Shown in pieces: positions 9,336 to 27,661 of a stretch of DNA of 64,000 nucleotides (the first letter of the stretch is position 1; the number at the start of each line of letters is the position of its first letter). Under the pieces are notes generated by a model. It did not search any database, had not been told where the DNA came from, and saw only the letters and a program-made list of their open reading frames with translations. A program made the translations under genes and the position numbers. Source of the DNA: a virus. Its lineage: Duplodnaviria; Caudoviricetes. The DNA is taken from IMG/VR virus record IMGVR_UViG_3300012665_000990, positions 1 through 64,000 of that record; one strand, written 5' to 3'.

Positions 9336-9944
9336 ATGAGTTTAGTACCAATTGTAGTTGAAAAGACCAGCGCCGGAGAACGCAGTTATGACATTTTCAG
9401 TCGCTTGCTTAAAGACAGGGTTATCTTCTTTAACGGTGAAGTTGAAGACTATATGGCCAATTTAATTGTTGCCCAATTGCTATTTTTGGAAAGTGAGAAT
9501 AGTGATTTGGATATTCATATGTACATTAATAGTCCTGGCGGCGTAGTCACTGCTGGTATGAGCATTTATGATACAATGCAATTTATCAAGCCAGATGTTT
9601 GTACATACGTTATGGGTCAAGCCTGTAGTATGGGCAGTTTGATTGCACAAGCCGGTGCTAAAGGCAAGCGTTATATGTTGCCAAATGCTCGTCATATGAT
9701 TCATCAACCAAGTGGTGGTGCTCGAGGACAAGCAACTGATATGTTGATTCAAGTTGAAGAGATTCTGGCAATGAAAAAGAATCTAACAGAAATTTACGCA
9801 AAGCATAATAGTCAAGGCAAGACATATGAAACTTTGAGTGCTGACATGGAAAGAGATAAATTCATGAGTGCTCAAGAAGCTCTCGATTATGGGCTAATTG
9901 ACCACATTGTGGACAAAAGGCCAAATGGTAGCACCAGCGTATAA
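9336..9944 (+). CDS. clpP: ATP-dependent Clp protease proteolytic subunit
   Basis: [25 protein letters not shown] (catalytic Ser), IHQPSGG (His), MERD. Confidence 0.97.
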
Positions 9945-11010
9945 TAGTAGCCAGTTACTAAAAAACATACGTCTAGATCAACTAGACATCAAAAGAGGTG
10001 AGCTTTCCGGAAACTTAATATCTGGAGGGCTTATCTCTGCCTTTGCATCTACAGGTATTAAAGACGATGCATCAGTACAAACTTTAATCATTGAAGATGG
10101 TCGCATCATTGTTGACAAAATTACTGTTAAAGAAATTGATAGCAATTTAGTAATATCTGGAAAACTAAATGTATTAGGTGAGTTAACTGCTACTAAAATT
10201 ACTGCTGATGAAATTTTTAGTAATCAAAAATACGATAAGCAATATATTGAATTCATTCCAAACGCACAAACACAAAGTACAATTGGCTCTGGATTCGTTT
10301 GGAAGGATGCAGGTCCTACAAGGATGTTTGTACTACGTCCAGAACCTGAACGTTTTTTCTCTAGTGAAAATATTGACATTAGAGATGGTAAAAACTACAG
10401 CATTGGTAATGTCAATGTGTTGTCCTTCAACCTACTTGGACCAACTGTTAAGAAAAGTAGTCTAACTGAAGTTGGCACACTAAAAGATTTAACTGTAAAT
10501 GGTGACACTGTATTGGGTGGGTTTGCTACATTTAATAGTGACTTACAGCGTATTGGTATTAACACTGATCAACCAGTAGGTGTATTAACACTGACTGATT
10601 TTGAACAGGATGTAATTTTAAATTTAGAAGTAGAAAATGGCCGTGCAAAAGTTGGCACATTTAATAACCGTCCTTTTGAATTAACTGCGGGAGATCTGGC
10701 ACTCGTCACATTAGAGCCAAAAGGCATTGTTAATATTGGGCATGAATACAGAAGTGACATTACCACTAGAGCATGGGGCAAGTTAGGTATCAATGTAAAG
10801 CATCCTGAAGAAGATCTAGAAGTACGTGGGAATATTCGTTTTAGAGAAAAACTTTTCGCAGTAGATAATTCTCCGCCAACTAAAGGTAACTATAAAAGAG
10901 GGGACATAGTTTGGAATGAAAATCCGGACGCTGGCTCTTTTATTGGCTGGGTATGTGTAGTCGCAGGCACACCTGGCATATGGAAAACTTTTGGAGCGAT
11001 CAGTGAATAA
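9925..11010 (+). CDS. Beta-rich protein with tail-fibre-like C-terminal module
   Basis: C-terminus [40 protein letters not shown]; RIGINT/KLGINV repeats. Confidence 0.6.
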
Positions 11011-11323
11011 TTTAATTAAACTAATACAGGCAAGGAAGCAAACTCAATTATGGCTATGGTTTGGACGCATCAGTCCAATTCTATTTTTAATTGGCGCAAT
11101 AGGCTTTTACGAAATCATGCATACAGATATACCTTTCATTTTCTATGCAAGTTGGGCAGGTTTTATCACAGTATCTTTAATTTGGTGGGGATGGGTTCTA
11201 AAAATCATTTTAGAATTTATACACTTTTTTGAAGAAGTTAACAAATCAGTTAATGAAATTCAAAATAATGTTATCGAAGTATGTGATGAGGTAAAAAAAT
11301 TGAACGAAGAGAAACGCAAATAA
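11003..11323 (+). CDS. Two-TM membrane protein with C-terminal coiled coil
   Basis: Two hydrophobic helices then heptad-like tail. Confidence 0.6.
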   Translation: MNNLIKLIQARKQTQLWLWFGRISPILFLIGAIGFYEIMHTDIPFIFYASWAGFITVSLIWWGWVLKIILEFIHFFEEVNKSVNEIQNNVIEVCDEVKKLNEEKRK

Positions 11324-11326
11324 ATA

Positions 11327-11354
11327 TTGACATAGTTATACATTAGTGTATAAT
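11327..11354 (+). promoter_or_regulatory. sigma70-type promoter for queD
   Basis: TTGACA-16nt-TATAAT; TAAATA immediately upstream. Confidence 0.65.
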
Positions 11355-11427
11355 TACTATATGCGGACTCAGGCATTCATCCCGCAATATAAACTCTGCA
11401 TGTCATTGCTTAATCAAGGAGATTACA

Positions 11428-11958
11428 ATGGCAAAATTTTACTCAACAAAAACTTACGGTAATGACCGCGGCTTATCATGCTGTTTTAGACAATGGCGTG
11501 CCACACATAGCCACTGCTCAACACTACATGGTTACTCAATTGGCATCAAATTAATTTTTGAATGTGACACATTGGATGACAAAAACTGGTGTATGGACTT
11601 TGGTGGTCTTAAAGAATTCAAAGCGTGGGCAGATGATACATTTGATCACACTTTGGTTATTGCCCAGGATGATCCACACTTAGCATTTTTCCAACAGATG
11701 GCTAATATGGGCAATGTTCCAAGTTCAGGAAACGGCGATCAAGGCTTTGATAAACTAGAACCTTATCAGCGTGGAGCATTATGTGACTTGCGTATTGTAC
11801 CAGGTGTAGGCTGTGAAATGTTTGCCAAAATGGCTTATGACAAAATGGCTGAGCTACTTGCAAGTGGCGACATGCGCTACCCAATCAATCCATCAGTTAG
11901 GGTTAAATCAGTTGAAGTATTTGAACACGGTGCTAACTCAGCAACTTACGAAGGATAA
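11428..11958 (+). CDS. queD: 6-carboxy-5,6,7,8-tetrahydropterin synthase (QueD/PTPS family)
   Basis: HSHCSTLHGYS Zn ligands, DFGGLK, FDHTL, terminal EVFEHGANSATY; SD AAGGAG. Confidence 0.88.
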   Translation: MAKFYSTKTYGNDRGLSCCFRQWRATHSHCSTLHGYSIGIKLIFECDTLDDKNWCMDFGGLKEFKAWADDTFDHTLVIAQDDPHLAFFQQMANMGNVPSSGNGDQGFDKLEPYQRGALCDLRIVPGVGCEMFAKMAYDKMAELLASGDMRYPINPSVRVKSVEVFEHGANSATYEG

Positions 11959-11963
11959 AGTAA

Positions 11964-12119
11964 TTGTGGCGACTTTGGGCTAAGGCTTTGGGGGAGAAAG
12001 CAGGCGATTCTGATAAAGAATCAGATAAAATCGCTTGCATTCGTACCGTAATTGTGTTAATATACATTATAACGAACTTTTTCATTATGGCAGGTATATT
12101 AAGGCATTGGAATGATTAA
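11964..12119 (+). CDS. Small membrane protein (TTG start, not in ORF track)
   Basis: (M)WRLWAKALGEKAGDSDKESDKIACIRTVIVLIYIITNFFIMAGILRHWND, resembles small proteins recalled from T4-like phages. Confidence 0.6.
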   Translation: MWRLWAKALGEKAGDSDKESDKIACIRTVIVLIYIITNFFIMAGILRHWND

Positions 12120-13128
12120 ACGAATAGGCTTTGCGTGTAAGTGGATTGATAACCCAAATCAAACAGCAGGTATTAAACCTACTGATGATTGTAAACAGTA
12201 CAACACTGGGTCAACGACTATTAGTTGGCTCAAACGGCAATCACAAGAAGTAGCCGAACAAAAGTTATGGGACTTGATGGTTCAGAATATTGAATCAGCT
12301 CGTCGTCTTGTAGAAAAGGTAGGAACACTGAATGAAGAACTTCGTATGGTACGTATTAGCAGTGATTTGCTTCCTGCATATACTCAGCGTGACTACAGTT
12401 ACTTTTGGCACAAGCCTGACGTTGTTCAGTATTGTGAACGCAATTTTGGCATTATTGGCGATAGTGCTCGTGCAAGCAATACCCGTCTTAGTTTTCATCC
12501 TGGTCAGTTTACTGTCTTGGCTAGTGATAACCCAGGCATTGTTGAAAGATCAATAGAGGAATTTGAATATCATGCGGATATGGCACGTTGGATGGGTTAC
12601 GGGAAATCCTTTCAGGACTTTAAGATCAACGTCCACATCTCCGGTAAACAAGGTCCAGCCGGTATCCTCCGTGCCTACGAACGACTATCGCCAGAAGCAA
12701 GAAACTGTATTACTATCGAAAACGAAGAAAACGCCTGGGGGTTAAATGATTGTCTTGAGCTTAGTGGTACTATTCCTATTGTTATGGATGTACATCACCA
12801 TTGGATCAGGGAAGGTGTATATATTACGCCAGATGATGATCAAGTACAACGTGTTATTGATAGTTGGCGTGGCGTTCGCCCTACTATGCATTACTCAGTT
12901 AGTAGAGAAGACTACCTTCTCGAGCATGATCGAACTACCGCGCCTGTTCATGCCCAACTTCTTCTAGAAGGTTACAAAAAACAAAAACTTAGAGCACATA
13001 GCGACTTTTATTGGAATACCGCAGTTAATGACTGGGTGCTAACATTCCGAGATAATTTTGATATTATGTGTGAAAGTAAAGGCAAAAATATTGCCAGTTT
13101 TGAACTGCACAGATACGCAACAACATAA
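12112..13128 (+). CDS. uvsE: UV DNA damage endonuclease
   Basis: RIGFACK, RISSDLLP, RLSFHPGQFTVLAS, ITIENEE, DVHHHW, HYS, AHSD, MCESKGK. Confidence 0.93.
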   Translation: MIKRIGFACKWIDNPNQTAGIKPTDDCKQYNTGSTTISWLKRQSQEVAEQKLWDLMVQNIESARRLVEKVGTLNEELRMVRISSDLLPAYTQRDYSYFWHKPDVVQYCERNFGIIGDSARASNTRLSFHPGQFTVLASDNPGIVERSIEEFEYHADMARWMGYGKSFQDFKINVHISGKQGPAGILRAYERLSPEARNCITIENEENAWGLNDCLELSGTIPIVMDVHHHWIREGVYITPDDDQVQRVIDSWRGVRPTMHYSVSREDYLLEHDRTTAPVHAQLLLEGYKKQKLRAHSDFYWNTAVNDWVLTFRDNFDIMCESKGKNIASFELHRYATT

Positions 13129-13132
13129 ATGC

Positions 13133-13160
13133 AAAAACCCGCACTAGGCGGGTTTCATTT
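13133..13160. terminator. Bidirectional intrinsic terminator
   Basis: AAACCCGC-ACTAG-GCGGGTTT between convergent uvsE and the minus-strand ORF. Confidence 0.8.
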
Positions 13161-13180
13161 TGCAAGAAGATTCCGTACTA

Positions 13181-13456
13181 TTACTTGGCAGTCTTCTTTG
13201 GAGCACGTGGCTTAGCTGGGGCTTTAACAGCCTTTGGCTTTGCTGGTGCTTTTGGCTTGGCCGGTGCTTTTGGCTTTGCTACTTTTGGTGTAGCTGGCTT
13301 TCTAGTTGCACGTGGCTTCTTAGCTGGTTCCGCGGCTGGCGCTACCGTAGTTTCTACAACTGCCTCAACTACTGGGGCTGATGTTTCTACTTTGTATGGT
13401 GCTGGCTCTGCTGGAGTAGCTGAAGTACCAAATAGTGATTTTAAAAATTTAATCAT
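13181..13456 (-). CDS. Histone H1/AlgP-like Lys-Ala-Pro-rich protein
   Basis: KPKAPAKPKAPAKPKAVKAPAKP repeats; GGAG SD on minus strand. Confidence 0.7.
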   Translation of the reverse strand: MIKFLKSLFGTSATPAEPAPYKVETSAPVVEAVVETTVAPAAEPAKKPRATRKPATPKVAKPKAPAKPKAPAKPKAVKAPAKPRAPKKTAK

Positions 13457-13634
13457 GATTAATCTCCTTGTAATTTAATTATGCCGGAAGATTGTCTCTG
13501 AAAAAATTTTGAAAGTAAAAATATCAAACGCCAATTTGCCGTTAGCTACATTAGCTGTATCACTTAGAAACAGGGAAAACAGTGATTTCAGGATCCTTGG
13601 GTGCCCTGTTGACCGTTTGACGGAAATATTTACC

Positions 13635-13642
13635 TATAAATA
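13635..13642 (+). promoter_or_regulatory. T4-type late promoter
   Basis: Exact TATAAATA 5 nt upstream of SOD ATG. Confidence 0.6.
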
Positions 13643-13647
13643 CAGAC

Positions 13648-14196
13648 ATGTATAATTTTATCAAAAACTTAACTGAAGGGCGAGATTTAACAGAGTTAAA
13701 AAGAATTACTCTAAACTATTCATCTGATGGATTAGGACGTAGTTTGAGTAAGCAGGCTATTGATTATCATTATGGTAAGTTATACAAAACCTATGTTGAT
13801 AGATTTAATAACAATGAGGGCGACTCAGACTTTAATGAAGCGGGTGCCTTTTTACACAGCATTTACTTTAGCCAATTTAAATCACCTGTTAGTTCAAATA
13901 AACCAATAGATGAATCACTTGCATTTATTGAAGAGCATTATCAAACATTTGATAACTTTAAAAAAGAGTTTGAAAAAACTGCAATGAGTATTCAAGGCAG
14001 TGGTTGGGTGTATCTAGCTCGTGATGGTAAAATTAAAACTATCAAAAATCATGAAATTAAAAATGATATATTGTTATTAATTGATTGGTGGGAGCATGCC
14101 TGGGCACTAGACTATCAAGCTGATAAAAAGAAATATTTAGAAAATCAATGGAAAATTATTGATTGGGAAGTTATTAATCATAAAAAGAGAGGTTGA
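13648..14196 (+). CDS. sod: Fe/Mn superoxide dismutase
   Basis: Metal ligands in HYGKLY, FLHSIYF, DWWEHAW; QGSGW. Confidence 0.92.
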   Translation: MYNFIKNLTEGRDLTELKRITLNYSSDGLGRSLSKQAIDYHYGKLYKTYVDRFNNNEGDSDFNEAGAFLHSIYFSQFKSPVSSNKPIDESLAFIEEHYQTFDNFKKEFEKTAMSIQGSGWVYLARDGKIKTIKNHEIKNDILLLIDWWEHAWALDYQADKKKYLENQWKIIDWEVINHKKRG

Positions 14197-14224
14197 TATG
14201 AAGTTTGGTGCTATGACTAAAGTA

Positions 14225-14253
14225 TTGACTTTTTAATATTTTAAAAGTATAAT
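14225..14253 (+). promoter_or_regulatory. sigma70-type promoter of suf operon
   Basis: TTGACT-17nt-TATAAT, ATG 5 nt downstream. Confidence 0.75.
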
Positions 14254-14258
14254 ACACT

Positions 14259-15683
14259 ATGGACGCAAAAGAAATAAAACAGAACGTCTATAAGCATGGA
14301 TGGTCATCCAAATTTAAAGCTGAAACTTTTGATAGAGGTTTAAGTGAAGATATTATTAGAAAAATATCAGAAGTTAAAGATGAACCTAATTGGTTATTAG
14401 ATTGGCGACTAGCCGCATACCACAGTTGGAGGAGGATGTCCAAGCCAGAATGGTCAGAGCTTGACATACCTGATATTGACTTCAACGAAATAAGTTATTT
14501 TAGTAGACCTAAAAATAGACCTAAGGATCTAAGCGAAGTAGATCCGTCAATTATAAAAGACTTTGAAAAGTTAGGCATACCACTTGAAGAACAAAAGTGG
14601 TTGGCAGGCGTTGCTGTTGACGTAGTACTTGACAGCGAGAGTCTTGGAACAACCCACAAACAAACATTACTAGCACAGGGAATTATTTTTTGCAGTATCA
14701 GTGAAGCTGTAAAAGAATATCCAGACCTAGTTAAAGAATATTTAGGCAGTGTGGTCCCAGCAAGGGACAATTATTACAGTTGTCTAAATGCCGCGGTGTT
14801 CACTGACGGTAGTTTTGTTTATATTCCCAAAGGTGTACGTTGCCCATTAGAGCTTAGTACTTACTTTAGAATTAATGAACCTAGCACTGGACAATTTGAA
14901 CGAACACTGATTATAGCAGAGGATGATTCATATGTATCTTATTTGGAAGGATGCACAGCACCAAAACGTGACGAGAATCAGTTACATGCCGCCGTCGTCG
15001 AACTTGTTGCCCTTGATAGGGCCGAAATCAAATATTCGACTGTACAAAACTGGTACCCCGGAGATGAGGAAGGACGAGGCGGAATTTATAATTTTGTCAC
15101 AAAGAGAGGAATTTGTCGCGGCGAATCAAGCAAAATATCTTGGACCCAAGTAGAAACTGGTAGTAGTATTACTTGGAAATACCCAAGCTGTATTTTAAAG
15201 GGCGACAATAGCGTTGGCGAGTTTTATAGTGTAGCAATTACTAAAAACAAAATGCAGGCAGATACTGGCACTAAAATGATACACTTAGGAGCCAATACAT
15301 CAAGTACAATTATTAGTAAAGGTATTAGCATGGATCATAGTGTTAATACATATCGTGGGTTGGTTAAGATCATGCCCAACGCACACAATTCAAGAAATTA
15401 TACACAATGCGATAGTATGATAATTGGAGACTATGGCATAGCCAATACAATACCTTATGTTGAAAGTAAAAACATTTCTTCAATTATTGAACATGAAGCA
15501 ACAACTGGGAGAATAAGTGATAAGCAGTTATATTACCTAGCACAGCGTGGCATGACTACAGAGCAGGCCGCAACTACTATTGTCAGTGGATTTTGTAAAG
15601 AAGTTTTCAAAACATTACCATTAGAATTTGCGGCTGAAGCACAAAAATTGTTAAGTATTAAAATAGAGGGATCAATAGGATAA
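14259..15683 (+). CDS. sufB: Fe-S cluster assembly scaffold SufB
   Basis: [57 protein letters not shown]. Confidence 0.97.
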
Positions 15684-16408
15684 TGTTAAAAATTACAAAT
15701 TTGTCTGTTAACGTAGCAGAAATTGATATTTTGAAAAATATCAATCTTGAAGTTAATGCAGGCGAAATACACGCAATACTAGGACCTAATGGTGCTGGAA
15801 AAAGTTCTTTAGCCAATGCTATATCAGGACATCCAGAAATCATTATCACTAAAGGAAGGATGTCCTTTAATAAAAAGTCGTTACTTAAAATGGCCGCTGA
15901 CGAAAGAAGTCGTGCTGGCATTTTTATGACTTTTCAAGACCCTCCAGAAATTCCAGGAGTTAGCAACTTACAGCTAACTAGAGATATCATTAAAGCACGT
16001 GGTGATAGTAGAGATAGTGGCACTATCATTAATGATTATAAAAAATTCGTCAAGCAGTGTGATTTAGGTAGTGAGTGGGGTAAAAGGGATTTCAATTTAG
16101 GAGCGAGTGGCGGGGAAAAGAAAAAGAATGAAGTTTTAATGATGCAAATGATTGACCCTTCATTGTTGATCTTAGATGAAATTGATAGTGGTTTAGATAT
16201 CGATGCGGTACAACAAGTTACAAAAGATATCAAAACATTTCTAGCTAAAGAAGGAAAGGCGTGTATTATTATTACACATCAGCCAACGATCCTAGATACA
16301 ATCAAACCAACGCATGTTCATATAATTGTAGATGGCAAAATCGTAGAGAGTGGCGATATTACACTTGTTAAAAGGATCAGTAAAAATGGCTATAGAGAGT
16401 TTTCTTAA
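15683..16408 (+). CDS. sufC: Fe-S assembly ATPase SufC
   Basis: GPNGAGKS, FQDPPEIPGV, SGGEKKKNE, LDEIDSGLDID. Confidence 0.95.
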   Translation: MLKITNLSVNVAEIDILKNINLEVNAGEIHAILGPNGAGKSSLANAISGHPEIIITKGRMSFNKKSLLKMAADERSRAGIFMTFQDPPEIPGVSNLQLTRDIIKARGDSRDSGTIINDYKKFVKQCDLGSEWGKRDFNLGASGGEKKKNEVLMMQMIDPSLLILDEIDSGLDIDAVQQVTKDIKTFLAKEGKACIIITHQPTILDTIKPTHVHIIVDGKIVESGDITLVKRISKNGYREFS

Positions 16409-17210
16409 AGTAGACAAAAAAGACCCGGATTGGTCCTACAGCCCAAGCAGTTATTTTGGGAAACAATTTAAAGTAATCGATGCAAACTGTTTACAGATTG
16501 CACCAGGTACAGAAGACTTAATGGTATTACGATTAAGTCCAACTGAAAATGACATGCTGTGCAAGCACCTACAAGTTATTGGTAGATCAAACAGCAGATT
16601 AGATTTATACATTATTTGTGATGGTGATGTTAATCTACAACAAGTATTTGTTTATGATGTTGCACTAGAGCCATATTCAATTTTAAACATTGGGTTCTTT
16701 GTAAAAAATGGCAAACTTAATAAACATATTGTAGAAGCTGAACTTGCTGAAGGAAGCGTACTTAATATTTTTGGACTAGTTGAAAATGACATTGGCGGTA
16801 GCAGTGAAGTTATTAACAAAATATGTCACTCAGAACCAAGTGCCGAAAGTCAACAGTTAATAAACTGTAAAGCAGGCAAAAATAGTCGAACTGTTTTCCA
16901 AGGATATGTAAGAGTAATAGAAGGAATGACTGACAATTTTGTAACAGTAGCCAATTCTAGTATTATTACTGAGGAAGGCGGACAAGCATACAGTGTTCCA
17001 CAAATGATGATTGACTGTGGCGAAGTTGAAGCTAGTCATAGTTGTGCTGTGGGAAAATTTGATGAAGAAGCTATTTGGTACCTACAGAGCAGAGGCATGT
17101 CTGAAGAAGGTGCTAAAGAGTTGCTAATCAGAACGCATCAGGATTATATACTCAATATGATTCCACACCAAGAGATACAAGATGAACTTAAAGAATTTTT
17201 CCAAAATTGA
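16386..17210 (+). CDS. sufD: SufD-like protein (short)
   Basis: SRTVFQG, PQMMIDCGEVEASHSCAVG, IWYLQSRGM; position in operon. Confidence 0.85.
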   Translation: MAIESFLKVDKKDPDWSYSPSSYFGKQFKVIDANCLQIAPGTEDLMVLRLSPTENDMLCKHLQVIGRSNSRLDLYIICDGDVNLQQVFVYDVALEPYSILNIGFFVKNGKLNKHIVEAELAEGSVLNIFGLVENDIGGSSEVINKICHSEPSAESQQLINCKAGKNSRTVFQGYVRVIEGMTDNFVTVANSSIITEEGGQAYSVPQMMIDCGEVEASHSCAVGKFDEEAIWYLQSRGMSEEGAKELLIRTHQDYILNMIPHQEIQDELKEFFQN

Positions 17211-18420
17211 ACATGATTTTGTACTCCCTAACTTAACATACTTAGACAATGCCGCAACCACATTTTGCCCAGAAAAGGTTGTTAATAAATTAAACGACTA
17301 TTTTACAAACTACAAAGCAAATATACATCGCGGCAGTCATAGTTTAGGTATTAAGGCCACAGATGAGTACGAGTCAGTACGCCTAAAAGTTGCTCGTTTA
17401 GTAAACGCAAAAACCTCAAAAGATGTTGTGTTTACCAGTGGCACTACACATAGTATTAATTTACTTGCTTTTGGATTCTGTAATAAATGGGGGCCAAACG
17501 ATCTTGTTATTGTTCCTGAAAGTGAGCACCATGCAAATCTTTTACCATGGGTCAAAGCCAGTGAACAGTTTGGTTTCCAATTTAAAACTGTAAATGTGAT
17601 TAAAGACGGCAGTTTAGATTTAGGACATTTACAAGAGCTACTTGATGATAGTCGTGGCAAAATACTATTCAGTATGGCACACATTAGCAATACAATCGGT
17701 TACGTACAACCAGTTAAAGTAATCTTTGATTTAATTAAAGAATTTGATGGCATTACTGTTTTAGATGCCGCACAAAGCATATCTAAATTCAATGTAGATA
17801 TGAATAGAGACAATATTGATTTCATAGCGTTCAGTGCTCACAAGTTATACGGCCCAACGGGAGTAGGAGTGTTGGTTGGCAGAAATAAACATTTAACTAA
17901 AATTGACCCACTGTTTTGGGGCGGTGACATGATTAGTAGTGTACATTGGGGCACAATCTCACTCAACTCAATCCCTTATAAATTAGAAGCTGGAACTCCC
18001 AATATTGGCGGAGTTATTGGTATGGGAGCCGCAATAGACTGGTTTAACGAATATGATATTAAAGATTTTAATGCTCATGATTTAGAACTAGGCAAGTATT
18101 TTGTTGAACAATTAGAAGAACTAGAGTTTATTGAAATTTTTCATCCTGGAACAAAAAGCGGCGTCATAAGTTTTAACGTAACTGGACAACACCCAGAAGA
18201 TGTGGCACAATTATTAAATGCTCAAAAGATTGCTGTTAGAAATGGCTTCCTTTGCGCACAACCAATTGTAGAAGAAAAGTTTGTTAATGGTGTTGTTAGA
18301 GCCAGTTGGGCTTGCTACAATACCAAAGATGACGTGGACAAGCTAGTAGCGGCTTTAAATAAGCTACATGGAATACTTGACAATAGAACAAGAAATAACG
18401 AAGTTATCACAGACTCTTAA
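17182..18420 (+). CDS. sufS: Cysteine desulfurase SufS
   Basis: YLDNAAT, EHHAN, DAAQ, SAHKLYGPTG (PLP Lys), EAGTP, CAQP. Confidence 0.93.
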   Translation: MNLKNFSKIEHDFVLPNLTYLDNAATTFCPEKVVNKLNDYFTNYKANIHRGSHSLGIKATDEYESVRLKVARLVNAKTSKDVVFTSGTTHSINLLAFGFCNKWGPNDLVIVPESEHHANLLPWVKASEQFGFQFKTVNVIKDGSLDLGHLQELLDDSRGKILFSMAHISNTIGYVQPVKVIFDLIKEFDGITVLDAAQSISKFNVDMNRDNIDFIAFSAHKLYGPTGVGVLVGRNKHLTKIDPLFWGGDMISSVHWGTISLNSIPYKLEAGTPNIGGVIGMGAAIDWFNEYDIKDFNAHDLELGKYFVEQLEELEFIEIFHPGTKSGVISFNVTGQHPEDVAQLLNAQKIAVRNGFLCAQPIVEEKFVNGVVRASWACYNTKDDVDKLVAALNKLHGILDNRTRNNEVITDS

Positions 18421-19063
18421 CGAGTTTGATGATAACTTAGAAAAGTACCAATTCATAATGGAGTTTGGTGATAATCTTGACGAGTTGTCAACTGAGTTTC
18501 GCATAGACGAAAATAAGGTTATAGGATGTCAAAGTGACCTTTGGATATCAAATTTTTCTCAAGATAAACTAGAAGCTAAGGCACACAGTGAAGCACTTAT
18601 TGTTCGAGGGCTAGTTGGCATTGTGCTTAAAATTTACAATGGAAGAACTGCTGATGAAATACTATATTCTAATCCAAAATTATTAAATGGGCTTGGAATA
18701 GATGGAATTTTAACTCCAGGAAGACAAAACGGTGTTGGTAACTTAATTAAAAAGATATACAAAATTATGGAGAAAATTAAGATAATCAATGCTATTAAGC
18801 AAGTATATGACCCTGAAATAGATGTTAATATATACGATTTAGGGCTAATTTATTCTGTTGAAGTTACTGGTAGCAAGGTGTCTATTGTTATGACGTTGAC
18901 TAGTGCGTTCTGTCCAGAAGCTGAAGCAATACCAAAAATGGTAAAAGATGCTGTTTTGACTGTTGATACAATAGATGAAGTTGAGGTAACAGTCACTATG
19001 GAGCCGCCATGGAATCCTGACAAAATTAGTGACGAAGCCAAACTTGAATTAGGAATATACTAA
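18368..19063 (+). CDS. sufE: SufE-SufT(DUF59/MIP18) fusion
   Basis: N-half KYQFIMEFG..VIGCQSDLW..IVRGL; C-half VYDPEIDVNIYDLGLIY..TLTSAFCP..PPW. Confidence 0.85.
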   Translation: MEYLTIEQEITKLSQTLNEFDDNLEKYQFIMEFGDNLDELSTEFRIDENKVIGCQSDLWISNFSQDKLEAKAHSEALIVRGLVGIVLKIYNGRTADEILYSNPKLLNGLGIDGILTPGRQNGVGNLIKKIYKIMEKIKIINAIKQVYDPEIDVNIYDLGLIYSVEVTGSKVSIVMTLTSAFCPEAEAIPKMVKDAVLTVDTIDEVEVTVTMEPPWNPDKISDEAKLELGIY

Positions 19064-19089
19064 GATATTCAATCGTGGTAAATAACAGT

Positions 19090-19419
19090 ATGAGTACTGT
19101 TATATTAACCCCAGAAGCTGCCGAATTTATTAAGGCAAGCTGTGATAAAAATAATTCCCAAGGTATGCGTTTATCCGTCAAGTCCAGCGGATGCAACGGA
19201 TTTAAATACTCTTGGGACCTTGCTACAGATAAAGAATCTGAAGACGAGATACTAGATGCAAATGGTGTGTTCTTAGCTATAGATAGCACAACCGCCAATA
19301 TGCTACAAAATTCAACGATAGAGCTAGAAAAAGATTTGTTTAGCTCTACTTTAAAAATAAACAATCCGCAAGTGGGTTATACTTGTGGTTGTGGACAATC
19401 ATTTTCAATAGGGTCATAA
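19090..19419 (+). CDS. sufA: A-type Fe-S carrier (SufA/IscA)
   Basis: SGCNGFKY and CGCGQSF motifs. Confidence 0.93.
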   Translation: MSTVILTPEAAEFIKASCDKNNSQGMRLSVKSSGCNGFKYSWDLATDKESEDEILDANGVFLAIDSTTANMLQNSTIELEKDLFSSTLKINNPQVGYTCGCGQSFSIGS

Positions 19420-19420
19420 A

Positions 19421-22400
19421 ATGTCAAGACAAGACGTTAATATTGGTTTAACTGGTAACGATGGAACTGGTGATAGCATCCGTGATGCGTTTAGTAAGGT
19501 TAATGAAAACTTTCAAGAGTTATACGCTAGCCAAGGTTTAGAGGGCGGGCTGTCTTTTGATAGTTTATCTAATGTTACTAAACCATTAGTTCCTAATAGA
19601 TTCTTAAGTATAGATAGCTTAGGTAAAAATGTAGTAGGTAGAGAAATTTTTGCAGGTGCAGGTATTGCTATTACTGTACAAGATGATAAAGTTGTTATCA
19701 GTACAGGTTCAGTTGATATTGTTCGTGACCCTAATCCAACACTATCAAATCATTTAGACGCCGCAACAAATAGAATTCAACGATTAGGCGATCCATTATC
19801 TGATCAAGATGCTGTTACTAGAAAGTGGATTTATCAAAACTTTTTAAATAGAGATTCTCAAGAAATTCTTGGTGCCACTGCCACAACGACTGGCAGTGTA
19901 ATGCGTCAAAACTTTAGAATTACACCTACTCCAGATAATGGTAATACTAATTTAGGCTTAACACAATTTATTAATTTAAAGGCCGCTGATGGTATTACTA
20001 ACAAAACTTCAGTATTATTAAATCAACAAGGTACACTAAGTTCACATGCTGTACGTAAAGACTATGCTGATAGTAAGATAAGTTTACACGGCACTGATGC
20101 AATTGATCCAGCAACTGGACTACGTGATCAAGGCTTTGGTACAATGACTGGACCATTAATTTTAAATGATCACCCAGGTGATTATGCAACATTAACTAAA
20201 AAGCCATCTGGTGAATTATTTGTACGTGAAGATTACAGAGCCGCCACCAAAGGATATGTTGACAGTAAAAGTTATGATAGTACTACCAACTTGTATGTTA
20301 CCACAAATGGTAACGATGATCTATGGGATTTTGAAAATAACAGACCAAACCCAATATATGGTTATACTGTAAAAGAAATTGGCCGTAAATGGAGTACTGC
20401 ATTTAAAACCGTTCGTGCGGCTTGTGCTTACGCCAAGTTGTACATGGATCAAATTACTTTAAGTGATACAGGATTTTCTGTTGCTCCTGGTAATATTACA
20501 AGGTATAATCCAACGTTTGCTCCTGCTGGTCCAAGAACTCGTGTACGTGTCAGTTTGCAAAATCACGGATTTAGAGATGGCGACTATGTTTTTGTAACCG
20601 GAGCAATTGTTGTTGGCAATAATGATACTAGAGCATTAAACGGAACACACCGTGTTAATCAAGTTGACGTTAATACTTTTGAATTAGATTTAAAATCTAC
20701 AATTTTGTGGGCCACACCTGTAACTGCTAATAATAGTACTGACCCAATCATTATCAAATTAGCCAATGCCAAAGATGGTCCTTATAGTTTAAGTAGTAGC
20801 GTTGCCCTTGGTCAAAGAGGATATGCTGTACCCAAGTACGAAATTACTATTATGATTGAGACTGGTGTATATGAAGAATATATGCCTATTATTGTTCCTC
20901 CAAACGTTGCATTACGTGGAGATGAATTTAGACGTACCATTATTAAACCAGCGCCTGGACCAGTAGTTAAAGACACAGCTGATGCACTTGCTAGAAAAAT
21001 TCCTGGTACACCTACTGAAGATATTAAATTTGTTCGTGGTGATCAGAGTTTTGCATCACCATACTGGTATAACACTCACTATTATAAACACCTAGCATTG
21101 GCTAACGGACAGCAAAGTATTGGTAGTACAACATTAACTATCTTTAACAGTGCATATCCTCCTAAATCAGGAACACGATTTATTGTTAATAATATTCAAT
21201 ATCGTGTTGGTGACGAAAGCACCATTAGCTATATTGATCCAATAACAAATATTGGAACAGCACAAGGCACATACACTATGGCCATCGTTGACGAAAACGG
21301 TGACCCAAAGCCTTTACAAAATACTATTTTACAAGATACCACAATTACATTCTATTTAGATAATGAACATTGTGATATGTTATTAGTTGACGATGCTTTT
21401 CAATTACGTAATTTAAGTTTCTATGGACATAAAGGTTTTATAATGGCCTTTAATCCAGCTGGCCAAATTTTAACACGTTCACCATATGCACAAGTTTGCG
21501 GTTCTTTCTCAAACAAAGGTGGAGGTGGTCAATTAATTGACGGTATGGCTGGTAACCAAGTTTGCCAAGTTGATGACACTACCTATACTGACCCAAATAC
21601 AGGTAACTCTGGTTCAAGAGGTACTAGAATGTATGTTAAAGGTCTAATTAGACCAGTACAATTACCAAATACATTCTATTTTAATAAAAAACGCTACGTT
21701 ATTAAAGAAGCTACCATTCCAGATGCTCAAGGTAAAGCTATGCTAACATTGGAGGATACTACTCCAATTGAAGAAGACGACACATATTTGACTGCTGGTT
21801 TCTTACCAAATGGTACGCAGATTATGATACAAACTGCTGGTAACCGTTCAATGTTGTCAAATGACTTTACCATGATCAATAACTTGGGTTATGGTATCTA
21901 TGCAGATAACAATGGTGTTACAGAAGCGGTATCGCAGTTCACATACTATTGTAAAATTAGCTATCTTGCTAGAGCTGGTGGTCAAGTTCGTTCAGTAACA
22001 GGTTCAAGTTGCTATGGACAATATGGTTTACAATCTGAAGGTAGTGATCCAAACGAAGCAACTCAAATTGTAAGATTCAACACCGACGTTGTCAATCTAA
22101 TGACTCCACAGATTGACGATCCTGAAGTAGATGGTTTGGTAGGAGCCATTAGTTTTGTTGCTGGAGGATTTAATAGTGCTCCAACAAGAAATTCAACATT
22201 CTTATTGAATAAAGCTCGAGTAGTTATTAGTCAAATTAATCGTGCTCGTTTGGGCGGTGGTACATTAACTACAGGCCCATTAACTGTTATAACAGCTCAT
22301 CCGCATCCATTCAAAACTGGTGAGGAAATTCAACTTAGTAATATTAAACCAGATCGAGGTTTACAATTAAATCCAATACCGCCAAGTGTAATTCCAAGAA

Positions 22401-25400
22401 ATACTAATTTAGATGGAACAACACACACTGTTACAGTGGTTGACCAAAGAACATTTACACTAGATAACACAGAAAGTACAAACTATTATAGTGATTTGAT
22501 AGCTTATACTGCCACCGAGTCACAACCATATGCTATACAAAATCTTGTTCCTGGTGCATTAGAACTTGTTTATTCAGTTAAGGGTGATCCAAGTCCAGTT
22601 AACTTTACAGCATCAGCACGTTTTGACGGAGTAGTTGGTGAAAATTCAACATCAACATCAACATTAAAATTATTTTCCGCAACAAGACCTGCTCAGGTTG
22701 GAATGAAATTTAGACTTGATGCCACTAACCCTGCGGTTAATGACAGCAGTCAAGTTTATAAAGTATTAACTGTATCTAAGAAAGTTGTAACATTTAAAGC
22801 AGTTCCGCCAACAGCAAGTGATAACAAAATTGGCGCAACAATACTTTACGTTAGAAACGTTACGTTTGCTGGAACAGCAGTGAACAGTCAAGGTAGTGCA
22901 TTTGCACCCAAGGCTGGTTGGAGTTTCCAACTTAGAGATTCCAATATTGCCAACAGTGATTTTACAAGATATACTGTTACTGGAACTCCTACATATGACA
23001 GTGGCTCTGCAACATGGGCACTTATGCTGGATCAAGCATTGACAGTCAACATGGTTGACCAGGTTGCTACTGGAAGAGTCACAACTGTTGACGGTATCTG
23101 GGACGTGACCTTAGATAGAAATCTTGGAACTACCATTACAAATAGTGCAACACCAGTACAGTTTGTATTCTATGATGCTTACTGGACAATAGGTATTGAC
23201 CCTTCATTAAGCGTAGCGATTCCTCAAGAACAACAATTAATGTTGTTCCAACAGCGTTCTGTTAGAGTACACCAAGTACTTAACAACCCAACTATTATTA
23301 ATAGTTCTGCATTAAAATTTGGTGCTACAAACTTTGATTCAACTGTTTATAGAATTATTGCTAAGACAGCAGAAGGTGGTTTAAGTAAGGACGTTTATAA
23401 ACTAGCGGCCACTGCACAACCATTACTTGGAAATAACTTAAATGCTGTTTCAATTTTAAATCAAAACAAGTCATTTATTCAATCTGAAGTAATTGCATAT
23501 CTGGCTACAATATATCCAGATTTTGTATACACACAATCTACATGTTATCGTGACGTTGGGTTAATTATCGATGCTGTTGCATATGACATGACCTATGGTG
23601 GTAATATTAGAAGTATTGCCGCAGGTAAATCTTATTACCAAGCAAATAATGCCAGTGTTGTAATTGTTATTGCAGAACAAAAACCTGAAACAGTTGATGC
23701 AATTAACTATGCAACAACAGTGGCCAAACTTGCACTGGCAAAGACCTCATTAAGTTACTCGGGAATTAATCCCAATGCCGCATTACAATTAACTAACAAC
23801 AAAGCATTTATCATAGCTGAAGTTATTGCTTGGTTATCATTTACATATCCGTCATTTGTTTATGACAGAGCAATATATCGTAGAGACATTGAAGTGGTCA
23901 TTGATGCAATGATTTATGATTTAAAATATAATGGCAATGTTAAAACATTACAGGCAGCACAGGCATATTACGATGAAAATGGCGCACTTATATTATCAAC
24001 TCAAAAGCCACAAATTCGTGCTTCTGTAGTAAGAGCAAAAAATGTAGCCAAAGATATCATTGCTAAAAACACAGTATCTAAAACTACTACAGGATCTGAT
24101 CCTAATATATTAACGCAAACATTAACTGGCAGTGCTGGTGAAGTAGGAACCACTGACACTGTTGAAACATTAATGGGCGTGATTGACAGTATTTTAAATA
24201 GTGGCTTAGGCGTTTCTCCAGCTAGAAATTTAGGCGATCCACGTTTATATCAAAATCCAGCAAATCCAGGTTATGTGGCACAAACTATTCCAGGTGATAT
24301 TACTTCTGAAGTAGGGACTCCTGCTCTATTAGAAAATAGAATGAATATTATTACCAATATTGTGCAAAATGGCCTAACCGCAGTGCCACAGGCGCAAGCA
24401 ACTGGTGAGACAATTCAAACATTGGTATTCCCACCAGATGCTAATATGTTGATTTACGGAGGTGTATTAACTGGACCAAACATTCCACCTAATACAATTA
24501 TTCGTGCTAGTCAGCAGGATAGTGTAACTGGAAATTACATTGCCAAAATTAGCAACACAATTTCTGGAACAATTTCAGCAGATACAGAATTAACAATTAC
24601 TGGACCTGGTTTTGACTTCATATTTGACTTGAACACTGACTTTGATGTTAGACATTTGAATGGTGATAGAGCGTATGTAACAACAACATTCTCAACTGTA
24701 CGTGCTACGGGACATGACTTCTTAGAAGTTGGTACTGGTGGATTTGATGATTCCAACTATCCACACAATGTATACGGGCAATCAGTGAATAGTCCTAGTG
24801 AAGGACGCATTGTACGTGAAATTGGTACGGGTCGTGTTTTCCACGTAAGTACTGATCAAAACGGTAACTTCCGTGTTGGTAGTTATTTTAACGTTAACCA
24901 GGGTGACGGTACAGTTAGTATTACTGCTAAAATTGGTTTAACTGCTGTTAGTGCTATTAGCTTTGCTAGTGGTGGTGCTTTAGTTACACAGTTTGGCACG
25001 GACCCAAAGATGGGCGACAATGCTGACTATATTGTACCAACACAAAAAGCAATTGTTAGCTATATTACTGCACAAATTAGAGGTCGATTTGAAGACGGAG
25101 TAGCAACAACTAAAGGTGGTTTATTGACCTTAGATGGCGAAAGCTCAATGGCTGGTCCAATCAAAGTAAACTACAATGAAGTAGAAGGTGTAATTAACAG
25201 TACTGATACAACAGGTTTTGGTGCAGTTAACAGAAAATATGTTGACAACGTGTTTGCAGGCGGTACTATTGACTATGATGGTCAATACGCAATTGCTTTG
25301 ACAGGTGTTAGAACTAATGTATTAGGCTTCACAATGAGGCAGGATAGAACTAGTTTAGGTGGAGTGTTACAAAACTTTGGTCTAATTAATCTTAACGGAA

Positions 25401-27661
25401 ATAAAATTACCAACGTTAGAACACCAACAGCAACATTAGATGCGGCAAATAAGATTTATGTAGATCAAACTATCGCTAATGGTGGGGTAAGAACTAACTG
25501 GGACGGATTTGCATTACGTACCGCAGGAACTTATGGACAAGTTAGTAGTTCATTTACTGTACTAAATTCTGGAACAGGTTACACCACTGCTCCAGTAGTA
25601 ACATTTGTAAGCTCAAGTGGTACAGGAGCGCAAGCTAGTGCCACAGTAGTTGGCAATAGTGTAGTTGGTATTACACTTGACTTCCCAGGATCTGGATACA
25701 CTTCAGCACCAACAATTATTATTGGCGGGGCTATTGCCACAGTGAACGTTATTAGTCAAGGTTCTGGATATGGTAGCGCACCGTTGATTGACTTCCCTGA
25801 GCCACAAACAAGTGGTGGTGTAAAAGCAACTGCTGTTACCAACATCAACGCTAGTGGTCAAATCACAAGTGTAACTGTACTCAATGGTGGTAGTGGATAT
25901 ACAATTGCTCCTATCCCATTCTTAGTCGTTAATACTGGAGGTGCTGTATTTTCATCCACACTAAGTCCAGGAACAGGTGCAACTGCATCATGTACGTTAG
26001 TTACAACATTATCAAATATTAATTTAAGTGGTAACAAGGTAACTGGCAGTGCTGATCCAACCCAAGCAACTGATTTAGTTACATGGCAATATTTTGATAA
26101 TAACCACTGGATTAAAGATAATAAAGATATCACTATAACAGGCACACCAGGTGATGGCGACTTGTTAATGTTTACTGGATATGTTCCATCAAATGTGGAT
26201 ACTGACAAACGCAGAAGTATGGTCAACGTTCGTCTAACACCAAATAGTGATATCACTTTTGCTAGAACTGATAATCAATTATTGGCCAAAGTTAAAGACA
26301 ATATTCTAACCAATGCACAAATTAATGCTAGTGCTGGAATTGATCAAAGTAAGTTAAACTTAAAAACTGCTACTGTATTTCCACCTATTAATAATCCAGG
26401 GCAAGCTGTCCCATTATCAAGTGATTTGGGTATTAGTACATATGACACTGATCAATTTGTTGTTGATAGTGGCTTGGTAAAATTAAGACAGGCAACAAGT
26501 AATACTACAGGTGTTACTCTTAACAGAATTTCTCATGTAACTAATTTTAAAATATTAGGTAGAAATGATACAAGTTCTGGTGCACCTGTATACGGCCCAG
26601 TTGTTGAGTTAAGCACAGCAGATTTGCGTTCATTATTGAATTTCCAAGAAGCTGTACAAAATTTAATTAGTGATGATAGTTTAGATACTCCATTAGTCAA
26701 CAGAGCAAACCAAGCACCAAGTTACGGTGCTGTACTAAAAACTGGTAGTTCAATGCGTGGGCCATTGACACTTGATGTTGCTAACCAAGATATTAATCAA
26801 GGGCTGAACCCAATGATTAGGGTTGCAACTGATAATGTGTATGAAGTAGGTACTGCTGCCAAGAGATTTAAAAATATCTACTCAGCAATGTTTACTGGTA
26901 CATTAACAGGTAATGTAACTGGTAAAGCAGATACTGCTGGCACAGCTGATAGAGTTGCCAATAATTTAAGTGCTGGTTCTTGGATTAGCATGGTACAAGG
27001 TTCAACTGCCAGTCCTTACAACGGATCAGCAGGCATAACAATTTCTGTATCTGGCGTTAGTACAAGTAGTACTGGTAATTCGATAGCACAACGTGATGCA
27101 AGTGGTTTTATAACTGCCGCAAAATTTATTGGTCCATTAAATGGAACTGCTGATAATGCAACTACTTTGGCCACATATTCACCGGCTATCAATTCTGCTG
27201 GTACGGGTACTGCCAACAGTATTGCACAACGAGATGGTAACGGTTATTTAAATGCCGCAAGATTCCAAGGTACTGCTACAAGTGCATTTTACGCAGACTT
27301 GGCTGAACGTTATCAAGCTGATACACAATACGAACCAGGAACTGTGTTAGAATTTGGTGGGGAATTTGAAGTTACTGTAGCCGAAGATGAAACACGAAGA
27401 ATTGCAGGTGTTGTTTCTACTAATCCTGCTTTTGAAATGAATACAGTGCTAGAAGGTGAAAATGTAGTAGCAGTAGCATTAATGGGCCGTGTTCCATGTA
27501 AAGTTCGTGGAGTAATTAGAAAAGGGGATATGTTAGTGAGTGGTGGTGGCGGTTATGCTCGTCCTACAACAGATCCAAAACTTGGTACAATCATTGGTAA
27601 AGCCCTAGAAAACTTTGACGGTGGTGAAGGTATTATCGAAGTTGTCGTGGGAAGACTGTAA
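19421..27661 (+). CDS. Giant virion fibre/baseplate-associated protein (2746 aa) with C-terminal autocleaving chaperone-like domain
   Basis: N-terminal gp9/gp10-like NDGTGDSIRDAF.KVNENFQELY; YVTTNGND..AFKTV..GVYEE..RGD beta-helix-type start; GSGYTxAP repeats; C-terminal YADLAERY..VAGVVST.P..VALMGRVPCKV..GKALE. Confidence 0.8.
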   Translation: MSRQDVNIGLTGNDGTGDSIRDAFSKVNENFQELYASQGLEGGLSFDSLSNVTKPLVPNRFLSIDSLGKNVVGREIFAGAGIAITVQDDKVVISTGSVDIVRDPNPTLSNHLDAATNRIQRLGDPLSDQDAVTRKWIYQNFLNRDSQEILGATATTTGSVMRQNFRITPTPDNGNTNLGLTQFINLKAADGITNKTSVLLNQQGTLSSHAVRKDYADSKISLHGTDAIDPATGLRDQGFGTMTGPLILNDHPGDYATLTKKPSGELFVREDYRAATKGYVDSKSYDSTTNLYVTTNGNDDLWDFENNRPNPIYGYTVKEIGRKWSTAFKTVRAACAYAKLYMDQITLSDTGFSVAPGNITRYNPTFAPAGPRTRVRVSLQNHGFRDGDYVFVTGAIVVGNNDTRALNGTHRVNQVDVNTFELDLKSTILWATPVTANNSTDPIIIKLANAKDGPYSLSSSVALGQRGYAVPKYEITIMIETGVYEEYMPIIVPPNVALRGDEFRRTIIKPAPGPVVKDTADALARKIPGTPTEDIKFVRGDQSFASPYWYNTHYYKHLALANGQQSIGSTTLTIFNSAYPPKSGTRFIVNNIQYRVGDESTISYIDPITNIGTAQGTYTMAIVDENGDPKPLQNTILQDTTITFYLDNEHCDMLLVDDAFQLRNLSFYGHKGFIMAFNPAGQILTRSPYAQVCGSFSNKGGGGQLIDGMAGNQVCQVDDTTYTDPNTGNSGSRGTRMYVKGLIRPVQLPNTFYFNKKRYVIKEATIPDAQGKAMLTLEDTTPIEEDDTYLTAGFLPNGTQIMIQTAGNRSMLSNDFTMINNLGYGIYADNNGVTEAVSQFTYYCKISYLARAGGQVRSVTGSSCYGQYGLQSEGSDPNEATQIVRFNTDVVNLMTPQIDDPEVDGLVGAISFVAGGFNSAPTRNSTFLLNKARVVISQINRARLGGGTLTTGPLTVITAHPHPFKTGEEIQLSNIKPDRGLQLNPIPPSVIPRNTNLDGTTHTVTVVDQRTFTLDNTESTNYYSDLIAYTATESQPYAIQNLVPGALELVYSVKGDPSPVNFTASARFDGVVGENSTSTSTLKLFSATRPAQVGMKFRLDATNPAVNDSSQVYKVLTVSKKVVTFKAVPPTASDNKIGATILYVRNVTFAGTAVNSQGSAFAPKAGWSFQLRDSNIANSDFTRYTVTGTPTYDSGSATWALMLDQALTVNMVDQVATGRVTTVDGIWDVTLDRNLGTTITNSATPVQFVFYDAYWTIGIDPSLSVAIPQEQQLMLFQQRSVRVHQVLNNPTIINSSALKFGATNFDSTVYRIIAKTAEGGLSKDVYKLAATAQPLLGNNLNAVSILNQNKSFIQSEVIAYLATIYPDFVYTQSTCYRDVGLIIDAVAYDMTYGGNIRSIAAGKSYYQANNASVVIVIAEQKPETVDAINYATTVAKLALAKTSLSYSGINPNAALQLTNNKAFIIAEVIAWLSFTYPSFVYDRAIYRRDIEVVIDAMIYDLKYNGNVKTLQAAQAYYDENGALILSTQKPQIRASVVRAKNVAKDIIAKNTVSKTTTGSDPNILTQTLTGSAGEVGTTDTVETLMGVIDSILNSGLGVSPARNLGDPRLYQNPANPGYVAQTIPGDITSEVGTPALLENRMNIITNIVQNGLTAVPQAQATGETIQTLVFPPDANMLIYGGVLTGPNIPPNTIIRASQQDSVTGNYIAKISNTISGTISADTELTITGPGFDFIFDLNTDFDVRHLNGDRAYVTTTFSTVRATGHDFLEVGTGGFDDSNYPHNVYGQSVNSPSEGRIVREIGTGRVFHVSTDQNGNFRVGSYFNVNQGDGTVSITAKIGLTAVSAISFASGGALVTQFGTDPKMGDNADYIVPTQKAIVSYITAQIRGRFEDGVATTKGGLLTLDGESSMAGPIKVNYNEVEGVINSTDTTGFGAVNRKYVDNVFAGGTIDYDGQYAIALTGVRTNVLGFTMRQDRTSLGGVLQNFGLINLNGNKITNVRTPTATLDAANKIYVDQTIANGGVRTNWDGFALRTAGTYGQVSSSFTVLNSGTGYTTAPVVTFVSSSGTGAQASATVVGNSVVGITLDFPGSGYTSAPTIIIGGAIATVNVISQGSGYGSAPLIDFPEPQTSGGVKATAVTNINASGQITSVTVLNGGSGYTIAPIPFLVVNTGGAVFSSTLSPGTGATASCTLVTTLSNINLSGNKVTGSADPTQATDLVTWQYFDNNHWIKDNKDITITGTPGDGDLLMFTGYVPSNVDTDKRRSMVNVRLTPNSDITFARTDNQLLAKVKDNILTNAQINASAGIDQSKLNLKTATVFPPINNPGQAVPLSSDLGISTYDTDQFVVDSGLVKLRQATSNTTGVTLNRISHVTNFKILGRNDTSSGAPVYGPVVELSTADLRSLLNFQEAVQNLISDDSLDTPLVNRANQAPSYGAVLKTGSSMRGPLTLDVANQDINQGLNPMIRVATDNVYEVGTAAKRFKNIYSAMFTGTLTGNVTGKADTAGTADRVANNLSAGSWISMVQGSTASPYNGSAGITISVSGVSTSSTGNSIAQRDASGFITAAKFIGPLNGTADNATTLATYSPAINSAGTGTANSIAQRDGNGYLNAARFQGTATSAFYADLAERYQADTQYEPGTVLEFGGEFEVTVAEDETRRIAGVVSTNPAFEMNTVLEGENVVAVALMGRVPCKVRGVIRKGDMLVSGGGGYARPTTDPKLGTIIGKALENFDGGEGIIEVVVGRL

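Follow-up and report, generated by a model that had tools for sequence, protein, structure and literature searches.

An apparently phage-borne and remodelled operon for SUF-type iron-sulfur cluster assembly in uncultured, probably T4-like jumbo phages

The first 64 kb of the 73,775-bp IMG/VR virus record IMGVR_UViG_3300012665_000990 (64,000 nucleotides, hereafter the window) carry, at 14259-19419, six tightly packed open reading frames (ORFs) on the plus strand that match Suf families in Pfam and NCBIfam, that is, the proteins of the SUF pathway, which assembles iron-sulfur (Fe-S) clusters. Neighbouring genes overlap by 1-59 nt and together they provide seven coding functions in the order B-C-D-S-E-T-A, two of them fused in one ORF. 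The original prediction, made from the letters alone, had described a suf operon with overlapping stops and starts at this locus, and all six ORFs are indeed present and match the families that it named. The operon is composed of the following features:

14225..14253, plus strand: sigma70-type promoter-like site, TTGACT-17 nt-TATAAT (11/12 consensus match)
14259..15683, plus strand: sufB, Fe-S scaffold subunit, 474 amino acids (aa) (NF008773, 822 bits, cut-off 717)
15683..16408, plus strand: sufC, ABC-type ATPase, 241 aa (TIGR01978, 278.2 bits, cut-off 212.8)
16350 (GTG, 286 aa) or, likelier, 16386 (ATG, 274 aa)..17210, plus strand: short sufD (SUFBD_core, E=2.6e-27)
17182..18420, plus strand: sufS, type II cysteine desulfurase, 412 aa (Aminotran_5, E=2e-117)
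18368..19063, plus strand: sufE-sufT fusion, 231 aa (PF02657, E=5e-31; PF01883 (DUF59), E=8e-20)
19075 (GTG) or 19090 (ATG)..19419, plus strand: sufA, A-type Fe-S carrier (TIGR00049, 89.2 bits, cut-off 58.8)

The SufB of the window, when aligned to the E. coli protein (PDB 5awf_A), keeps R226, N228, C254, Q285, W287, K303, C405 and E432-H433-E434, and lacks the N-terminal Cys-rich insert. The motifs of SufC are complete (Walker A GPNGAGKS, Q-loop, signature SGGEKK, Walker B LILDE and H-loop ITHQ), and SufA keeps the three cluster-ligand cysteines, in GCNGF and in CGC near the C-terminus. SufS, to which the closest solved structures are those of SufS (E=4e-93), keeps the lysine that binds pyridoxal 5'-phosphate (PLP; in FSAHK), the catalytic Cys, the His of EHHAN, DAAQS and RAS; FSAHK, the Cys of RNGFLCAQP and EHHAN align to K224, C361 and the HHAN motif of B. 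subtilis SufS. In the fused protein, the SufE domain (approximately residues 1-133, 18368-18766) keeps the persulfide-acceptor motif VIGCQSDLW, with the conserved Cys that corresponds to E. coli C51, and the DUF59/SufT domain (residues 134-231, 18767-19063) keeps the motif TSAFCP. SufD aligns to residues 248-392 of E. coli SufD and retains the equivalent of H360, a His that is invariant in 14/14 phage and bacterial SufD sequences, with Ala in place of C358. The catalytic motifs had been described as intact, and this is accurate for all the catalytic and ligand residues that were checked, but not for the active-site loop of SufS (GFLCA for GHHCA) nor for SufD, which is truncated and has Ala at C358.

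The genes that surround the operon are those of a phage. Upstream lie a ClpP-type head protease, a tail-fibre-like ORF and phrog_11903; downstream lie a giant tail fibre, a baseplate connector, a clamp loader and a T4-type DNA polymerase (phrog_262, E=2.7e-199), and the window also encodes virion proteins and an endolysin. The operon is followed by this gene:

19421..27661, plus strand: giant tail-fibre/virion protein gene, 2746 aa (phrog_9851 tail fibre, E=9e-57; phrog_5342; phrog_701)

Its product also matches T4_gp9_10_N, the N-terminal domain of T4 gp9/10 (26.1 bits, cut-off 25). The stop of sufA ends at 19419 and this ORF begins at 19421, a gap of 1 nt, so the operon is embedded in phage sequence, as had been claimed. 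GC content and skews are even across both operon junctions and throughout the window, and all the sizeable genes of the window lie on a single strand. The same suf operon was recognised by synteny comparison in three viral contigs (L004, L005 and L006), each from another metagenome, in which a homologue of the giant tail fibre (47-54% identity over approximately 1500 aa, tblastn) again lies 3' of sufA; the upstream part of L005 holds homologues of window genes spanning 5.4 to 13.1 kb. The recurrence of the same operon and tail-fibre junction in three independent metagenome contigs excludes a chimeric assembly with host DNA, a possibility that had been raised together with the original prediction. 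More widely, suf operons are found amid homologues of the genes of this phage on approximately 30 viral contigs related to it, and in further viral contigs the suf genes are placed among homologues of window genes from 35.8-43 kb.

According to CheckV the record is 21% complete, from which a full genome of roughly 350 kb is estimated. The DNA polymerase of the window is nearest to those of the jumbo phages Phosso, Atu_ph07, SCTP-2 and 121Q (42-50% identity). No capsid gene was found on the 73.8-kb fragment; the T4 capsid protein Gp23 is encoded by two of its suf-carrying relatives, G001 and G005. The first of them (340 kb, estimated 91% complete, with a DNA polymerase 57% identical to that of the window) bears the cluster HSP20-ClpS-sufB-DUF1289-sufC-sufD(418 aa)-sufS-sufT-(ORF without Pfam match)-peroxiredoxin, at 9219-17448 of locus L025. 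The DUF1289 gene that sits there between sufB and sufC is small and Cys-rich.

A search of IMG/VR with the SufB of the window matched 38 viral contigs. The cellular sample with which the viral sequences were compared consists of the 80 SufB loci most similar to the window SufB, taken from a collection of one genome per species for 185,579 prokaryote species. In the resulting trees, which come from quick searches, are unrooted and draw their cellular sequences by similarity to the window SufB, 33 viral SufB lie on one side of a branch with a support of 98 in the approximate likelihood ratio test SH-aLRT, and the corresponding values for the viral group are 100 for SufS and 99 for SufC; in each tree the viral sequences thus cluster together, with good support, and the nearest cellular homologues sampled lie outside. 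Five IMG/VR contigs place among bacteria in the SufB tree; in these, SufB was probably captured recently or is part of a cellular fragment that has been misclassified. The proteins of the window are distant from those of the sampled cellular loci (identity does not exceed 68% for SufB and is 20-55% for the remaining Suf proteins). Among 5.8 billion protein clusters, the matches to SufS with at least 49% identity are unnamed metagenome proteins only, one of them (P0005) 95% identical to that of the window, and the rest, including all named bacterial proteins, reach at most 43%.

The genes show the marks of purifying selection. The ratio of nonsynonymous to synonymous substitution rates (dN/dS) between L004 and L005, the least saturated pair in a set where dS mostly comes close to saturation, is 0.023 for sufB, 0.023 for sufC, 0.010 for sufD, 0.040 for sufS, 0.080 for sufE, 0.128 for sufT and 0.083 for sufA, so that none of the seven coding units approaches the value near 1 of relaxed selection. 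Amino-acid identity between the window and L005 goes from 47% (sufA) to 80% (sufB) in the suf genes; sufB, sufC, sufD and sufS (64-80%) are within what is found for the flanking phage genes (66-82%), and sufE, sufT and sufA (47-56%) are more diverged. Taken together, the divergence of the suf genes, the selection on them and their viral grouping fit a long co-inheritance with the phage and do not fit a recent capture. The reading that is preferred here is, for these reasons, that of a genuine phage-borne SUF operon, passed on for a long time among related jumbo phages of the T4-like kind that are uncultured, to which a probability of roughly 0.72 is assigned. The more specific proposal of a virus-specific SUF lineage, acquired anciently, remodelled within the jumbo-phage family and supplying Fe-S clusters independently of the host machinery, stands at even odds; the remodelling that it comprises would be a SufD that became shorter step by step, a SufS whose active-site loop was rebuilt, a fusion of SufE to SufT of independent origin and an early mRNA that is leaderless.

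The first of these changes can be followed across phage lineages, in which SufD has a length of 418-425 aa, 274-286 aa or 192-194 aa; in L007-L010, L014, L018 and L019 a SufD homologue was not detected between sufC and sufS, where a gap of approximately 430 nt remains. SufD thus appears, to judge from these sequences, to have shrunk in steps. Short SufD proteins (249-312 aa) also exist in Pelagibacteraceae, Sphingorhabdaceae and Turneriella, which are free-living, SUF-dependent bacteria. Regarding SufS, of the 31 viral sequences listed, 28 carry Leu, Met or Val at the place of the second His of the loop, and GHHC is present in 53 of 61 bacterial SufS.

The presence of both sufE and sufT had been proposed and is borne out, although the two are fused in the window and are separate genes in its closest relatives, L004, L005 and L006. 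The fused 231-aa protein is 96% identical to one in independent JGI and ENA data (P0125). Bacterial SufE-DUF59 fusions have the same architecture, PF02657 followed by PF01883 (for example the 'SufE family protein' of Bacteroidales, of 243-308 aa), but they are merely 29-35% identical to the protein of the window. Because of this low identity, and because the nearest relatives have separate genes, the fusion is considered to have arisen independently and recently.

Over 9 kb, only one other site matches a promoter about as well as the promoter-like site upstream of sufB, the two being the best found. It had been predicted as a single strong sigma70 promoter, and the comparison with L004, L005 and L006 is consistent with that assignment: the hexamers are identical, the 17-nt length of the spacer is maintained and the ATG lies 5-7 nt past the -10 hexamer, with a spacer whose sequence differs. 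The palindrome-like spacer was considered as an operator and rejected, as it is not kept in L004 and L005. In the window the ATG of sufB starts 5 nt past the -10 hexamer, a distance that leaves no room for a Shine-Dalgarno site before the gene. The sufB mRNA would probably be leaderless, transcribed from a conserved early promoter, and the downstream genes would be translated by coupling. On the plus strand, no terminator-like site was seen 3' of sufA. Between the stop of the gene that precedes the operon and sufB there is also a mini-ORF of 12 codons, MKFGAMTKVLTF (14198-14236), which has a ribosome site resembling GAGAGG and overlaps with the -35 hexamer; as L004 and L005 lack it, it may be due to chance. 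In L004 a gap of approximately 330 nt (3433-3763) separates sufB from sufC, genes that abut in the window, L005 and L006.

Among the known systems closest to this one is the SUF pathway of E. coli (sufABCDSE, with the SufBC2D complex of PDB 5awf and the SufS-SufE relay), with which the window shares the seven functions, the key residues and the organization in a single tightly coupled operon. It differs in that the operon is encoded by a virus and has the order B-C-D-S-E-T-A, with sufA in last position, sufT added, and sufE and sufT fused. The differences extend to the proteins (a SufD approximately 140 residues shorter at the N-terminus, the GFLCA loop of SufS and a SufB without the Cys-rich insert) and to regulation, in that a control region of the Fur, IscR or OxyR type is not evident. 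It can be described as what seems to be a SUF system of the classical kind that has been remodelled and is specific to viruses, with its function read from sequence.

The gene order had been likened to that of alphaproteobacteria, and the sampled loci of Pelagibacteraceae (L086) and of SAR116/Puniceispirillales (L045, L067 and L119) do share the order sufB-C-D-S-T-A; the SufD of L086 is also short (312 aa). However, these operons have no sufE, which among the loci sampled lies between sufS and sufT in phage contigs only, and their proteins are approximately 66% identical to those of the window for SufB and 25-51% for the others. In the trees the phage copies separate from them and do not fall within Alphaproteobacteria, and an alphaproteobacterial donor was rejected on these grounds.

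Phages have been credited with single Fe-S genes. Those described in marine phages are an A-type carrier/sufA, IscU, SufE and PaaD/DUF59 (PMC5332604; PMC8940887), the occurrence of sufE without sufS in phages has been remarked on (PMC8940887), and such helper genes have been proposed to serve phage radical S-adenosylmethionine (radical-SAM) enzymes and to help against oxidative stress (PMC5332604; PMC8940887). A lone, host-like SufB has been reported in freshwater amoC-phages (bioRxiv 10.64898/2026.06.18.733297), and a survey of marine jumbo phages makes no mention of Fe-S genes (PMC9123017). These single genes, like the operon described here, belong to aquatic and often T4-like phages, but they are isolated and must plug into the machinery of the host, whereas the window holds a whole pathway of a virus-specific lineage that is not a host-like copy. 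A phage SUF operon that is complete was not found described in the searchable literature, whose coverage leaves many subscription papers outside, so that its absence there is not proof; within that literature, where only single Fe-S genes are attributed to phages, the opinion that a full pathway is unusual stands.

A nucleotide search of 50,697 GenBank phage records with the operon gave one weak partial match only, and a protein search with SufB and SufS found none with this operon in clear phage context. The matches that were rejected correspond to host DNA in prophage flanks, unannotated bulk contigs, the disputed MaAM05/PhiMa05 and Acinetobacter phage MD-2021a, where sufS stands alone. Staphylococcal 'phage' SufB belongs to the host flank outside the att site, and the sufB of phiSP44-1 is found outside both att repeat and integrase. 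No GenBank 'phage' other than MaAM05/PhiMa05 has a sufBCDS cluster, and this cluster is part of the reason why that record is disputed and held to be a bacterial fragment (PMC13623518). As for MD-2021a (CAKLQH020000001.1 / CAKLQF020000001.1, 329-379 kb), it has an annotated sufS that is 36% identical and no SufB match, and may represent a further jumbo phage that has part of a module for sulfur mobilisation.

The way in which the operon would work can be proposed from the residues read in the sequence and the chemistry of the E. coli system. Early in infection, the RNA polymerase of the host would read the conserved sigma70-type promoter, giving a leaderless mRNA that starts at or next to the AUG of sufB and whose overlapping genes would be translated by coupling. 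SufS, with its PLP, would move the sulfur of cysteine to its own catalytic Cys and then to the Cys of the SufE domain, which would hand it to SufB in the SufB-SufC2-SufD scaffold; there, the cluster would be built at the interface between SufB (C405/E434) and SufD (H360), with hydrolysis of ATP by SufC. Finally, apo-proteins would receive the cluster from SufA, with the DUF59/SufT domain as an aid in maturation. The favoured role is an oxidation-tolerant supply of Fe-S clusters, independent of host transcription, which would serve the Fe-S enzymes of the phage and probably also those of the host: the operon would feed phage radical-SAM enzymes (QueE-like in this phage, many more in its relatives) and would keep the Fe-S enzymes of the host working. 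An antioxidant enzyme accompanies the operon, a superoxide dismutase in the window and a peroxiredoxin in a sister lineage.

The candidate client lies on the same contig, beyond the window. It is a QueE-like protein (72436-73386; 9437-10387 of L122), picked up through weak Fer4_12 and partial QueE matches and located near FolE (69192-69956); its N-terminus matches four QueE models with E values of approximately 1e-11 to 1e-9 and a fifth with 3e-7. A QueD-like 6-pyruvoyl-tetrahydropterin synthase is encoded upstream of the operon, at 11428, and the presence of the FolE, QueE-like and QueD-like genes suggests a 7-deazaguanine pathway, which needs a [4Fe-4S] enzyme. The QueE-like protein has the canonical N-terminal QueE motif, with approximately 44 extra residues that separate the third of its candidate cluster cysteines from the second (C47-x3-C51 ... 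C96-D-T). Radical-SAM matches number 11 in G001, 23 in G005 and 3 in G007, a further relative that carries suf genes. The contig of G005 (that of L015) has, at approximately 198-219 kb, a dense block of at least 12 radical-SAM genes, a few kb from a sufS-sufB pair, within 10 kb of which sufC and sufD were not detected. QueE and NrdG had been suggested as the Fe-S clients of the phage: the idea is plausible, given the QueE-like gene and the 3-23 radical-SAM genes of the relatives, but NrdG was not seen in this fragment.

An alternative, rather unlikely but the most serious of those considered, is that the operon is functional and mainly sustains the Fe-S proteome of the host (respiration, central metabolism and nucleotide supply) when iron is limiting or oxidative stress sets in, once the gene expression of the host has been shut off. 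It is well established that the SUF pathway of E. coli is the one used under stress and iron limitation, and the neighbours of the operon are in accordance with that use. An antioxidant gene is found near suf in several of these phages: a superoxide dismutase (SOD) in the window and also before sufB in L006, and a peroxiredoxin in G001, where HSP20 and ClpS are close by. The SOD gene of the window lies directly 5' of the operon:

13648..14196, plus strand: Fe/Mn superoxide dismutase gene (Sod_Fe_C, E=3.8e-23)

Beyond it, approximately 1.1 kb upstream of sufB, is the UV endonuclease UvdE, and a ferritin/Dps-like gene is located at 55538-55972 (PF00210, E=1.3e-20). The lack of a strong radical-SAM match on the 74-kb fragment also speaks for a service to the host. 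On the other hand, the relatives that carry suf are unusually rich in radical-SAM genes, which in G005 are in the vicinity of the suf pair itself, and a supply for phage clients and one for the host are not mutually exclusive.

It is improbable that the operon is a captured passenger, in decay or repurposed, that builds no clusters and may bind or divert the SUF proteins of the host as a pseudo-enzyme with a dominant-interfering effect. The change from GHHCA to GFLCA throughout the viral group and the decreasing sizes of SufD could be understood in that manner, but the seven functions are retained together with all the checked catalytic and ligand residues, dN/dS is 0.01-0.13 per gene, and a short SufD is also found in bacteria that live freely and depend on SUF.

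The notion that the suf genes are host DNA mis-joined to a phage, or that the contig is a bacterial fragment miscalled as viral, can be practically discarded, for even though a complete Fe-S assembly system is treated by published critics as typical of cells, the record of PhiMa05 having been doubted partly for that (PMC13623518), and the SufB matches in GenBank 'phage' records are mainly host flanks such as that of phiSP44-1, the composition and strand of the window are uniform, sufA is 1 nt from the tail-fibre gene, the junctions are repeated in contigs from three other metagenomes, a 340-kb relative combines T4 capsid, polymerase and suf operon, and the Suf proteins are far from the sampled cellular homologues (identity of no more than 68% for SufB and, here, no more than 47% for the others).

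With regard to the preferred reading, that of an operon long inherited by the phages and at work in them, a number of observations weigh against it, in addition to the nature of the trees and the near saturation of dS mentioned above. Two of the proteins are below the cut-offs of their models: SufS on TIGR01979 (417.5 bits, cut-off 475.1) and SufD on TIGR01981 (111.9 bits, cut-off 222). SufS has RNGFLCA as its active-site loop where the bacterial enzymes have RxGHHCA, with both histidines gone, and SufD lacks approximately 140 N-terminal residues (the N-terminal third) in comparison with L025, L045 and E. coli; given the altered loop and the missing domain, full activity is not guaranteed. As for the client, the QueE-like match is limited to the first ~35 residues, the whole protein is below the cut-offs of the models, and radical-SAM family PF04055 has no match on the 73.8-kb contig. 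The link between the operon and the Fe-S clients of the phage is one of association.

The metabolic genes of phages usually provide single steps that patch a bottleneck of the host, and a full Fe-S pathway of seven functions under selection shifts that boundary, in that a virus, and by extension a group of giant phages, would bring the means of making an essential cofactor. The heavy load of radical-SAM genes in these phages could in this way be linked to a dedicated supply of the cofactor. There is also a consequence for the assessment of contigs as viral: bona fide phage genomes can contain a system for Fe-S assembly, contrary to its use as a bacterial marker (PMC13623518). In addition, the shortened SufD and the SufS without GHH constitute natural minimal variants with which to ask which parts of SUF are dispensable.

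Some minor observations concern the remainder of the window. The exact T4 late-promoter box, TATAAATA, occurs once in the 64 kb, at 13635-13642, 5 nt before the start of the SOD gene; since it occurs only once, the consensus must differ from that of T4 if the phage uses late promoters of the T4 type. The ferritin/Dps-like gene, the SOD and the SUF operon give the phage a theme of iron and oxidative stress. A proteostasis set (9336-9944, 46756-49032 and elsewhere) includes ClpP-like, ClpA-like (phrog_4871, E=3e-246), DnaJ, peptide deformylase, GroES-like, PhoH and Bax1-I proteins.

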